From assembly GCA_001769275.1 (NCBI GenBank), contig MEOQ01000001.1, positions 4,604 through 68,603 of the forward strand: a stretch of DNA of 64,000 bases. The letters are read 5' to 3'. Position numbers and translations under genes: made by a program. The first letter of the stretch is position 1. Every line of letters begins with the position of its first letter. A model generated the notes under the pieces. The model searched no databases. It saw nothing but the letters and a program-made list of their open reading frames with translations, and was not told the DNA's origin. The DNA comes from Bacteroidetes bacterium GWF2_43_63 (lineage in GTDB: Bacteria; Bacteroidota; Bacteroidia; Bacteroidales; DTU049). Of the stretch, positions 7,813-8,531 are shown one piece after another.

Positions 7813-7897
7813 CGGAGAGACAGGGATTCGAACCCTGGGACCCTTGCGGGTCAACGGTTTTCGAGACCGCCCCGATCGACCACTCTGGCATCTCTCC
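7813..7897 (-). tRNA. tRNA-Ser (anticodon CGA), type II with long variable arm
   Basis: The reverse complement GGAGAGATGCCAGAGTGGTCGATCGGGGCGGTCTCGAAAACCGTTGACCCGCAAGGGTCCCAGGGTTCGAATCCCTGTCTCTCCG has a 7-bp acceptor stem, a CAGGG/CCCTG T-stem with a TTCGAAT loop, a CT-CGA-AA anticodon loop and a GACCC/GGGTC variable arm. No CCA is encoded. Confidence 0.85.
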
Positions 7898-7916
7898 TTT
7901 TTTTCGCTTGGGAGCG

Positions 7917-7924
7917 CAAATTTA
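7917..7924 (-). promoter_or_regulatory. -7 box TAAATTTG upstream of tRNA-Ser (duplicated at 8321-8328)
   Basis: Matches the TAnnTTTG consensus and ends about 20 nt upstream of the tRNA 5' end. Confidence 0.4.
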
Positions 7925-8182
7925 CGGATTATTTTTATTCAGTACGTTTTTTTCGATCCATCGCCTGCCCCAGCCCGATTTGAGATACTTCTCGCGCTTC
8001 ATGGCTCTTGATTTTTCATCATACTCTTCAAGATGAATTCGCACCCATGGCCTGAAGGCCTTTGTCCATGTGCTTTTTCCGGCGTTGTGCGCTTTCAGTC
8101 TTTCATCAGGCTGAGCACTCATGCCTACATACAACCTGGCGGTCGGTATGCTTTTTAAGACATAAACGTAGAATTTATCCAT
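7922..8182 (-). CDS. small GIY-YIG (URI-domain, COG2827/YhbQ-like) nuclease family protein
   Basis: MDKFYVYVLKS...LYVGMS...RLKAHNAGK...REKYLKSGWGRRW. The ATG at 8182 is preferred over the upstream track start. Confidence 0.8.
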   Translation of the reverse strand: MDKFYVYVLKSIPTARLYVGMSAQPDERLKAHNAGKSTWTKAFRPWVRIHLEEYDEKSRAMKREKYLKSGWGRRWIEKNVLNKNNP

Positions 8183-8265
8183 GATTTTCTTCGGTTTTTG
8201 GCGTGATGTCAAGTGTACCCACTTGACAAACGCCAGCACGTTTGATGCGGAGCATCATCACGTGC

Positions 8266-8301
8266 CGAGACCGCCCCGATCGACCACTCTGGCATCTCTC
8301 C
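8266..8301 (-). pseudogene. orphan 5' half of tRNA-Ser (nt 1-36, ending inside the anticodon)
   Basis: 36/36 identical to 7862-7897. No T-arm (GGTTCGAAT) occurs between 8183 and 8265. Confidence 0.75.
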
Positions 8302-8358
8302 TTTTTCCCGCTTGGGAGCGCAAATTTACGGATAATTTTTATTCAACACGTTTTTTCG
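8266..8358 (-). repeat. copy B of a ~93-bp direct repeat (copy A is 7862-7955): tRNA 5' half, promoter and the 3' end of the GIY-YIG gene
   Basis: Offset 404 bp, only a few mismatches over the first ~93 nt, then decays. Copy B carries a 1-nt shorter A-run that frameshifts the relic (8343-8417). Confidence 0.8.
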
Positions 8359-8531
8359 TTCCATTGCTGGCCAAAGCTATAATCGAGTACTTCCGCGGAA
8401 AAAACGAAAACGCTCATGAAGTGGATGTGATTGTGATGGCAAAGCTACCGGCAATGGGAGGTTTGAAAGACTCGAAGTGTCTTTTATATAACCATCAAAC
8501 TCAATTAAGAAACAAATCAAATAAATTAAAT

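Follow-up and report, generated by a model that had tools for sequence, protein, structure and literature searches.

The DNA analysed here, 64,000 nucleotides of contig MEOQ01000001.1 from Bacteroidetes bacterium GWF2_43_63 (positions 4,604 to 68,603 of the forward strand; GenBank assembly GCA_001769275.1) and referred to below in its entirety as the window, contains a single tRNA gene according to ARAGORN, that for tRNA-Ser(CGA). Close upstream of it and on the same strand lies a gene for an 86-residue protein of the GIY-YIG nuclease family, which is enclosed between two copies of the 5' part of the tRNA gene and is preceded by a pair of hairpins. Comparison with related loci suggests that this arrangement probably represents two units, one live and the other decayed, of a compact selfish cassette residing in tRNA genes. 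The features of the locus, all on the minus strand, are as follows.

7812-7897, minus strand: intact tRNA-Ser(CGA) gene (ARAGORN; Rfam RF00005, 47.3 bits, full length)
7917-7924, minus strand: TAAATTTG box of the Bacteroidota -7 type, copy A, 19 nt before tRNA nucleotide 1 (read from the sequence)
7922-8182, minus strand: intact gene for the 86-residue minimal GIY-YIG protein (ATG at 8182, stop codon at 7924-7922; Pfam PF01541)
8183-8198, minus strand: resumed tRNA nucleotides 37-43, AAAACCG (8198-8192), and a 9-nt linker to the ATG at 8182 (read from the sequence)
8199-8235, minus strand: hairpin HP2, TGGCGT-T-(9-bp stem, 4-nt loop)-TC-ACGCCA (DNA fold)
8236-8265, minus strand: hairpin HP1, GCACGT-GA-(6-bp stem)-A-ACGTGC, starting directly after tRNA nucleotide 36 (DNA fold)
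8266-8301, minus strand: orphan tRNA-Ser nucleotides 1-36, the tRNA part of repeat copy B (identity to 7862-7897)
8302-8328, minus strand: copy B of the 19-nt leader and TAAATTTG box (box at 8321-8328), a candidate promoter (repeat and sequence)
8326-8397, minus strand: frameshifted relic of an older GIY-YIG 3' end, residues ~63-86 and stop codon (gapped alignment to 7996-7922)

A repeat search delimited the two copies of the direct repeat to 7862-7952 and 8266-8356 (91 nt, 95% identity, spacing 404 nt). Each comprises tRNA nucleotides 1-36, which are 100% identical between the copies (7862-7897 and 8266-8301), and the 55 nt upstream of the tRNA, with the 19-nt leader, the box and the final codons of the GIY-YIG gene; in copy A the box overlaps the stop codon TAA of this gene, which is located 24 nt before tRNA nucleotide 1. 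The repeat ends after the second anticodon nucleotide (C35 and G36 within it and A37 beyond it, in gene numbering). The regenerated tRNA gene at 7812-7897 is intact and uninterrupted as assessed by ARAGORN, and the displaced nucleotides 1-36 (8266-8301) lie at the far end of the arrangement. The unit is 404 nt long and consists of the double-hairpin site, tRNA nucleotides 37-43, the 9-nt linker, the GIY-YIG gene, the promoter box and tRNA nucleotides 1-36. Only the GIY-YIG open reading frame (ORF) is found between the repeat copies, with no integrase or recombinase gene, and a second GIY-YIG gene was not found elsewhere in the window. Beyond copy B, the segment 8397-8266 aligns with 7996-7862 apart from three single-nucleotide deletions, which identify 8326-8397 as the frameshifted and decayed C-terminus of an older GIY-YIG gene. 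Much of a preliminary description of the locus, made from the sequence alone, is thereby borne out: it had reported the recurrence, 404 nt away, of the first 36 nt of the tRNA and its upstream region, the inclusion in the repeat of a -7 box, now found in both copies, and of the last GIY-YIG codons, the presence of a single 86-residue ORF and of no integrase within the unit, and a frameshifted relic to the right of copy B.

The same description had placed a breakpoint within the anticodon. The repeat does end after anticodon nucleotide 2, but the orphan half continues, since the tRNA sequence resumes with AAAACCG after a 67-nt module formed by HP1 and HP2 (8265-8199); the supposed breakpoint is thus a precise insertion point, between anticodon nucleotides 2 and 3 and without target-site duplication. 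The two hairpins downstream of the orphan half had also been noticed, although the conserved core that they form at the junction had been overlooked. As DNA, HP1 and HP2 together have a folding energy of -27.4 kcal/mol, compared with -9.2 +/- 2.0 for shuffled sequences (z = -9.2). The motif CGTGAT...AAACG occurs once on each strand, at 8239-8262 on the minus strand (HP1) and at 8202-8232 on the plus strand (HP2), which makes HP2 the reverse-complement form of HP1 and renders the module dyad-symmetric as DNA. A search for further copies of this motif in the 64 kb returned three matches where 1.2 were expected, the additional one, at 41302, being at chance level.

Related loci were retrieved by similarity to the GIY-YIG protein, 80 from species-representative genomes and 80 from metagenomes, and are designated by L-numbers; cultured carriers among them are Algoriphagus marincola DSM 16067 (L039), Psychroserpens sp. 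SPM9 (L006), Robertkochia flava (L013) and Chryseolinea sp. H1M3-3 (L022). Loci with the tRNA gene downstream of the GIY-YIG gene are termed D forms and those with the tRNA gene upstream U forms. The junction between tRNA nucleotide 36 and the hairpin start GCACGTGATGATGC is found in three other assemblies (L081, L085 and L088), and the tRNA segment from nucleotide 37 into the 40s (t37-4x) that follows the module recurs in these three and in L095, L096, L102, L104 and L113. The hairpin insert lies between anticodon nucleotides 2 and 3 in all 14 scored loci of the tRNA-Ser clade, with Ser(TGA) and Ser(CGA) genes and both D and U forms represented; this position within the anticodon loop, which the preliminary description had proposed as the target, is the fixed site for the whole clade. 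The two-hairpin module of the window type is present in 12 of these 14 loci, while L149 and L150 carry a different pair at the same site. Among 17 modules compared, the six-base lower stems keep CG(T) and their outer three pairs covary, the internal loops mirror each other (GA/A in HP1, T/TC in HP2), and the upper stems, unrelated in sequence, are nevertheless paired in every case. On this comparative evidence, the hairpins belong to the element as a conserved component with dyad symmetry and are not an incidental structure. The 14-mer AACGTGGTCGCGTT of the Ser-type module has 120 matches in viral contigs, none of which is accompanied by a full module, and these are accordingly regarded as chance matches.

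Promoters of Bacteroidetes follow the consensus TAnnTTTG. A sigma-70 scan is of little use for a genome of Bacteroidota, so that the promoter call at this locus rests on the TAAATTTG box and on its agreement with that consensus. The box is kept upstream of the tRNA in L081, L082, L085, L086 and L111. Its second copy in the window (8321-8328) is a candidate promoter for a transcript that would comprise the orphan half, the hairpins and the GIY-YIG gene, in line with the suggestion of the preliminary description that the nuclease gene is transcribed from the duplicated tRNA promoter, which we likewise infer.

The protein matches Pfam PF01541 over residues 3-69 with an E-value of 3e-15 (56.7 bits against a cut-off of 22.6). 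Residues Y7, Y18, G20, R28, H32, N33 and E64, invariant or nearly so across two alignments of the family, are all present. An AlphaFold model with a pLDDT of 92 displays the order beta-beta-alpha-beta-alpha-alpha; its best Foldseek matches are the nuclease domain of Slx1 (7cq2 and 6seh) and the UPF0213 protein BH0048 (1zg2), the catalytic domain of I-TevI being recovered weakly. At the sequence level the best relatives of solved structure are the UPF0213 protein EF2693 (1ywl, E=1.6e-5), BH0048 and Slx1, with ~30% identity. No separate DNA-binding domain was found in the 86 residues, as the Pfam scan returned the catalytic domain alone and the model contains no extra domain. Slx1 cuts branched and stem-loop DNA. 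Given the lack of a DNA-binding domain, it would be more natural to guess that this protein is a nuclease specific for structure, with the dyad hairpin site as its target, than that it is a homing enzyme with a long recognition site. Several database proteins of the family (for instance P0035, P0016 and P0010) have N- or C-terminal extensions that consist of translated tRNA sequence.

Contigs with cassettes 91-98% identical to that of the window display a variety of states; among them, L085-L088 and L111 come from metagenomes of anaerobic digesters and groundwater in which the lineage occurs. In L081 the junction is the same and the upstream unit is longer, as it retains the 3' two-thirds of a GIY-YIG gene; this unit and the downstream one are 100% identical. 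L085 and L088 resemble the window, including its GIY-YIG relic, except that the box has been deleted from the upstream copy, and in L086 and L087 a microhomology deletion between two AAACGT sequences has taken away the 3' end of the relic together with the promoter box, the orphan half and the greater part of HP1. L111, whose upstream neighbour gene is that of the window (72% nucleotide identity), has a 5'-truncated GIY-YIG gene, the promoter box and an uninterrupted tRNA, and is without the hairpin module; this is the state that would be expected before the arrival of another unit. In L082-L084 (85% protein identity) there is a single GIY-YIG gene with its tRNA, and upstream of it the 3' half of HP2 alone remains. 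The outer flanks differ among these contigs which, together with the variant states, fits repeated gain or amplification followed by decay. The earlier proposal that a cassette inserted or recombined at the anticodon loop at least twice is thus in agreement with the relic and the intact copy of the window and with L111, L081 and L085-L088 to the extent that repeated rounds are implied, while insertion in these rounds is inseparable from unequal exchange.

The link to tRNA genes extends well beyond the tRNA-Ser clade. A co-oriented tRNA gene directly adjoins the GIY-YIG gene in 120 of the 160 loci, distributed over many phyla, and an adjacent tRNA gene in the opposite orientation was found in none of the 160. 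By a rough estimate that assumes about one tRNA gene per 50-100 kb, chance adjacency would amount to well under 1%. The tRNA gene is downstream in ~60% of the tRNA-adjacent loci and upstream in the remainder, and fifteen isotypes are involved, chiefly Ser, Leu and Arg. A GIY-YIG gene and its nearest relative agree in tRNA isotype in 81 of 121 cases, where 21% agreement would be expected by chance, but in D or U form in just 73 of 121. Where the tRNA is downstream, the two genes are tightly packed: a median of 4 nt separates the GIY-YIG stop codon from tRNA nucleotide 1, and 29 of 77 such loci (among them L001, L002, L006, L020 and L048) have the stop codon inside the tRNA gene. Such packing and overlap imply co-transcription, in which case processing by RNase P would strip a stop codon located inside the tRNA from the messenger RNA, and its removal could hold nuclease levels very low.

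A partial copy of the same tRNA is present on the other side of the GIY-YIG gene in 64 of 121 testable flanks, counting only copies that score above every shuffled control. In D forms it is the 5' part of the tRNA that is copied upstream of the GIY-YIG gene, and in U forms the 3' part that is copied downstream; the copies reach the natural end of the tRNA, and a hairpin usually interrupts them 5-40 nt short of the GIY-YIG gene. Whole units form tandem arrays in L003 and L004. The preliminary description, which had named an association of this GIY-YIG family with tRNA genes elsewhere as the test of its proposal, is supported by the 120 adjacent and co-oriented cases. Its counterproposal, a local duplication unrelated to the nuclease, is excluded as a one-off event by the recurrence of the partial copy at dozens of independent loci with different tRNAs. 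The 5'-side duplication that it had emphasized is true of the window but does not define the element, owing to the existence of the mirror form with the tRNA upstream and its 3' part duplicated.

Two further observations were made in the course of the survey. One family member (L056, 2416-2770) is located ~230 nt downstream of a co-oriented tmRNA gene instead of a tRNA gene. Many contigs end within ~50-400 nt of the GIY-YIG gene (L002, L003, L005, L018, L021, L041, L045, L063, L065, L074 and others), as expected if repeated tRNA and GIY-YIG units break short-read assemblies.

Other clades of the family carry other hairpins, and the type of hairpin tracks the GIY-YIG clade. The commonest is a near-invariant perfect palindrome of 20 nt, CCTGCCTGCCGGCAGGCAGG, found in 38 of 84 loci from Candidate Phyla Radiation (CPR) bacteria, Bacteroidota, Chloroflexota and gamma-proteobacteria; the point at which it interrupts the dead tRNA copy varies. 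This palindrome has no match with up to three mismatches in the window, whose clade accordingly uses a different hairpin module. When the insertion points, not all of which are independent events, were placed on the cloverleaf, 34 of 40 scored fell in loops or at loop borders, the sites hit being the anticodon, D, T and variable loops and the border between the D loop and its stem. Solo hairpin units were also found elsewhere in dead tRNA copies, between t11 and t12 in L100, between t50 and t51 in L091 and between t70 and t71 in L105 and L112. In L033 (106-307), a metagenome-assembled genome of Ignavibacteria, a near-full-length upstream copy of tRNA-Arg(ACG) is broken at its D, anticodon and T loops by three to four inserts, each a GC-rich hairpin, and is followed by the GIY-YIG gene and then by an intact tRNA-Arg. 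A role of the hairpins as translational regulators in the 5' untranslated region (5'-UTR), as in homing endonuclease genes of phages (PMC2677866), was considered and rejected as a general account: D forms have the hairpin upstream of the ORF and U forms have it downstream, so that it is not merely a 5'-UTR regulator.

The palindrome CCTGCCTGCCGGCAGGCAGG is also dispersed in viruses, with 42 copies in 35 IMG/VR viral stretches (L165-L199). These copies often have short direct repeats on either side or lie in intergenic DNA of low complexity, and at least six are present in the phage contig IMGVR_UViG_3300037242_000417. In two phage contigs an otherwise intact tRNA-Met(CAT) gene has the palindrome in its variable loop (L189, 2239-2330; L166, near 8616); ARAGORN still calls the gene of L189, as a tRNA of 92 nt, in which the hairpin may amount to a long variable arm that the tRNA tolerates.

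Taken together, these observations make it probable that a hairpin site, a minimal Slx1-like nuclease and a replacement tRNA part constitute a selfish cassette that is housed in tRNA genes, exploits their transcription and spreads by means of their homology. In the window, a unit would have come to sit between anticodon nucleotides 2 and 3 of tRNA-Ser(CGA). Since its downstream end carries nucleotides 1-36, an uninterrupted tRNA is rebuilt there, and the original 5' part would remain upstream, orphaned and with the hairpins as a cap. The nuclease gene, being always co-oriented with the tRNA, would ride on tRNA transcription, which in the window may start from the box kept before the orphan half, with a predicted start near 8310-8315 on the minus strand, and would run through the hairpins and the GIY-YIG gene into the tRNA, with processing by RNase P; most other loci do not have the space for the nuclease gene to possess a promoter of its own. 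Conserved tRNA sequence flanks the cassette on either side and may serve as homology arms for entry into the corresponding tRNA gene of another genome or of a sister chromosome, and spread would then proceed by homing-like break repair or recombination initiated by the nuclease, of which the hairpin module is probably the cognate structured DNA site. Tandem units could arise through re-cutting of the rebuilt tRNA and re-insertion, or through unequal exchange between the repeats, and older units, once redundant, would decay, the relic at 8326-8397 being a likely remnant of one of them.

The neighbourhood of the cassette in the window comprises the following further features.

6344-7573, minus strand: tyrosine integrase gene (Pfam Arm-DNA-bind_5, Phage_int_SAM_5 and Phage_integrase), 239 nt from the 3' end of the tRNA
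7755-7779, minus strand: terminator-like hairpin with a 10-bp stem followed by the T-run TTGTTTTT, just 3' of the tRNA (terminator scan)
8532-8795, minus strand: ORF of 87 residues with two CxxC pairs, zinc-ribbon-like and without a Pfam match, between the histone-like gene and the GIY-YIG relic
8847-9179, minus strand: gene for a Lys/Ala-rich protein of 110 residues resembling histone H1/HC2, with degenerate internal tandem repeats at 9038-9157

The integrase belongs to a separate, conventional tRNA-associated element and is not part of the cassette. It is followed at lower coordinates by NucS-like, DUF6438 and HTH genes, in an arrangement that resembles a conventional integrative island at tRNA-Ser; a second copy of the tRNA 3' end, which would mark the attR site of such an island, was not found in the 64-kb window. 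On the other side of the locus, a homologue of the histone-like gene directly precedes the truncated GIY-YIG gene of L111, and the 87-residue CxxC ORF is missing from the corresponding place.

Several observations weigh against the selfish cassette as proposed. About one quarter of the family members have no adjacent tRNA, and a clear partial copy was detected in just 14 of 51 loci with the tRNA upstream. No strictly orthologous empty site was found, the nearest relatives being on short contigs; when one was sought through the neighbouring gene for an agmatine-deiminase-like protein (289 residues), the next relatives, at 86% and 73%, were on contigs of 1-2 kb. With the tRNA rebuilt, the presumed target exists again, and the simple logic of homing, in which insertion destroys the site, is therefore not applicable; in addition, the 86-residue protein has no separate DNA-binding domain, unlike characterized GIY-YIG homing endonucleases. 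The precise insertion of hairpins without target-site duplication is left unexplained by the cassette model. Finally, 41 of the 42 viral copies of CCTGCCTGCCGGCAGGCAGG have no GIY-YIG gene within 400 nt, which suggests that the hairpins may have a life of their own. This last point also speaks for a different, rather unlikely explanation, in which the hairpins are the primary mobile units and insert without target-site duplication into the loops of tRNA genes, while the GIY-YIG protein is a nuclease acting in trans, in effect a 'transposase'; the GIY-YIG gene with the duplicated tRNA part would then be the autonomous form, and the duplication would survive by rescuing the tRNA disrupted by the hairpin. 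The presence of the palindrome in phage tRNA-Met variable loops, the extra solo hairpins in the dead tRNA copies of L100, L091, L105 and L112, the three to four separate inserts within the single tRNA copy of L033, the preference for cloverleaf loops and borders (34 of 40) and the specificity of the hairpin sequence to the GIY-YIG clade are all in its favour. However, GIY-YIG enzymes are hydrolytic, and strand transfer or a covalent intermediate is not known for them; the full module of the window's clade is found exclusively at the anticodon site and beside the GIY-YIG gene, with no other copy in the window, where the match at 41302 is at chance level; and the constant position of the GIY-YIG gene between two tRNA copies is not explained by this model alone.

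The strict co-orientation, the packing of the ORF against or over the tRNA and the breadth of the family across phyla could alternatively reflect a domesticated nuclease of benefit to the host, engaged for example in processing the co-transcript or controlling its quality, or in protecting tRNA genes from elements that integrate, such as the conventional integrase element that adjoins the same tRNA in the window, with the tRNA fragments as by-products. We consider this improbable in view of the patchy distribution over many tRNA isotypes, the tandem arrays, decayed relics and truncated pseudogenes in close relatives and the many contigs that break at GIY-YIG/tRNA loci, and because the dyad symmetry of the hairpin site points to an action on DNA rather than on RNA. 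Even less probable is that slippage or unequal crossing-over produced a tandem duplication of the ordinary local kind, which happened to take in the GIY-YIG gene beside the tRNA and in which the nuclease would have no role. The copies are indeed direct repeats with a single unit between them, and unequal exchange can grow and shrink arrays without a nuclease; on the other hand, the same anatomy is found at no fewer than 64 independent loci with different tRNAs, a conserved hairpin module is located exactly at the junction, and this junction is common to diverged genomes whose outer flanks differ. Least credible of all is an origin as the att-site scar of an integrase-mediated element or as the residue of an anticodon-loop group I intron that had carried a homing endonuclease gene, notwithstanding the tyrosine integrase gene 239 nt from the tRNA 3' end and the known occurrence, in the anticodon loops of bacterial tRNA genes, of group I introns that contain endonuclease genes (Bonocora & Shub 2001, via PMC2677866). 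The integrase gene lies on the other (3') side of the tRNA and is not enclosed by the repeats, it is the 5' half that has been duplicated, the unit measures just 404 nt and the functional tRNA is uninterrupted. An Rfam search of 6000-10000 at E<=1, made with group I introns and other RNAs in mind, returned no intron or ribozyme, the only matches being the tRNA and a spurious plastid match on the opposite strand.

The selfish cassette is thus retained as the probable explanation, and a broader reading of it is offered tentatively, as something that may hold in its entirety although the balance is somewhat against it. Minimal Slx1-like GIY-YIG nucleases and their cognate hairpins might jointly represent a new class of prokaryotic mobile element, with hairpin-directed insertion into tRNA-gene loops, without target-site duplication and travelling as a passenger of tRNA transcription, in which the damage to the tRNA would be neutralized by a carried or created tRNA part. 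The class might extend over Bacteroidota, Verrucomicrobiota, CPR/Patescibacteria, Chloroflexota, Proteobacteria and some phages, and dispersed solo hairpins such as CCTGCCTGCCGGCAGGCAGG might be its non-autonomous derivatives.

If the proposal is true, the cassettes, with ~300-400 nt and one protein of 80 residues, would be among the smallest autonomous selfish DNA elements known, and would exemplify a new way of living in an essential gene, by providing a spare part rather than by self-splicing. The large family of minimal GIY-YIG proteins of the UPF0213/COG2827 kind would gain a candidate function and, in defined DNA hairpins, a candidate substrate, and a nuclease paired with a short, portable and structured DNA site may be of enzymological interest. 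The cassettes also account for tRNA fragments and pseudo-tRNAs beside tRNA genes, as well as for the breaks of metagenomic assemblies at these places. The loop bias of the insertions parallels the positions of archaeal tRNA introns and of the junctions in split tRNA genes, which provides a testable bacterial case for mobile elements shaping the architecture of tRNA genes.

In the literature searched in full text, with subscription-only literature outside its coverage, neither GIY-YIG genes nested in bacterial tRNA genes nor the palindrome are described, and the cassette has to be set against several systems that it resembles in part. Phage T4 reportedly possesses, within a tRNA gene cluster, a free-standing GIY-YIG homing endonuclease gene, that of SegB. 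A recent study also deals with free-standing phage GIY-YIG homing endonucleases of the SegB kind (PMC13096335). The likeness lies in a GIY-YIG nuclease gene among or next to tRNA genes and in the presumed selfish logic, by which a break in a tRNA gene is repaired from the nuclease-bearing copy, with local amplification as a possible outcome. However, Seg proteins have at least 200 residues and include DNA-binding domains, whereas the cassette protein is an 86-residue catalytic domain alone. Seg genes lie between genes, without the splitting of a tRNA and its rebuilding from a duplicate and without a conserved dyad hairpin site, both of which are found in the cassettes; and they occur in phage genomes, while the cassettes are mostly chromosomal and spread across bacterial phyla.

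Slx1 and UPF0213/YhbQ proteins provide the best sequence and fold matches of the cassette protein, and the cutting of branched and stem-loop DNA by Slx1 fits a hairpin or cruciform substrate. Unlike the cassette protein, Slx1 works together with Slx4 and has a RING/PHD domain. To our knowledge, no function has been assigned to UPF0213 proteins, nor has a connection with tRNA genes been reported for them.

Integrative elements that target tRNA genes are said to include a rare case in which the 5' part of the tRNA is replaced and a promoter supplied. With integrative elements the cassette shares the insertion into a tRNA gene, often at the anticodon loop, and the carried tRNA part that regenerates the gene while a fragment is displaced to the far end. 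They are kilobases long, though, and employ tyrosine or serine integrases on att sites, in contrast to the 300-400 nt of the cassette, which has a nuclease and hairpins and no recombinase; unlike them, the cassette also exists in both 5'- and 3'-duplicating forms.

A selfish nuclease-bearing insert that has been rendered harmless to its host at the anticodon loop is equally a description of group I introns with homing endonucleases in bacterial tRNA genes, for which PMC2677866 gives I-Ssp6803I in tRNA-fMet as an example. In that case harm is avoided by self-splicing of the RNA, whereas in the cassette it is avoided at the DNA level by a duplicate that rebuilds the gene, no ribozyme being detected. 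The 'fractured genes', in which free-standing GIY-YIG or Vsr-like endonuclease genes are located between the halves of genes with split inteins (Dassa et al. 2009, PMC2677866), resemble the cassette in the splitting of a conserved gene of the host by a compact endonuclease gene that is free-standing, and in the hairpins beside the endonuclease ORF. Their targets are protein-coding genes and host function is restored by protein trans-splicing, while the cassette targets tRNA genes; moreover, their hairpins are 5'-UTR features, whereas that of the cassette is found on either side of the ORF, inside the tRNA fragment.

Lastly, a small nuclease gene with clade-specific palindromic hairpins, the absence of target-site duplication and the dispersal of solo hairpins are reminiscent of REP/RAYT and IS200/IS605 elements. 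These rely on HUH Y1 transposases, which form covalent intermediates, and are directed to short sequence motifs. They do not duplicate any part of a host gene, in contrast to the cassette, whose only ORF is of the GIY-YIG family and which targets the loops of tRNA genes. The cassette shares part of its logic with each of these systems, yet each has a defining feature that the cassette lacks (a DNA-binding domain, a recombinase, a ribozyme or an HUH transposase), and it is rated here as a variant of a homing-type selfish element.

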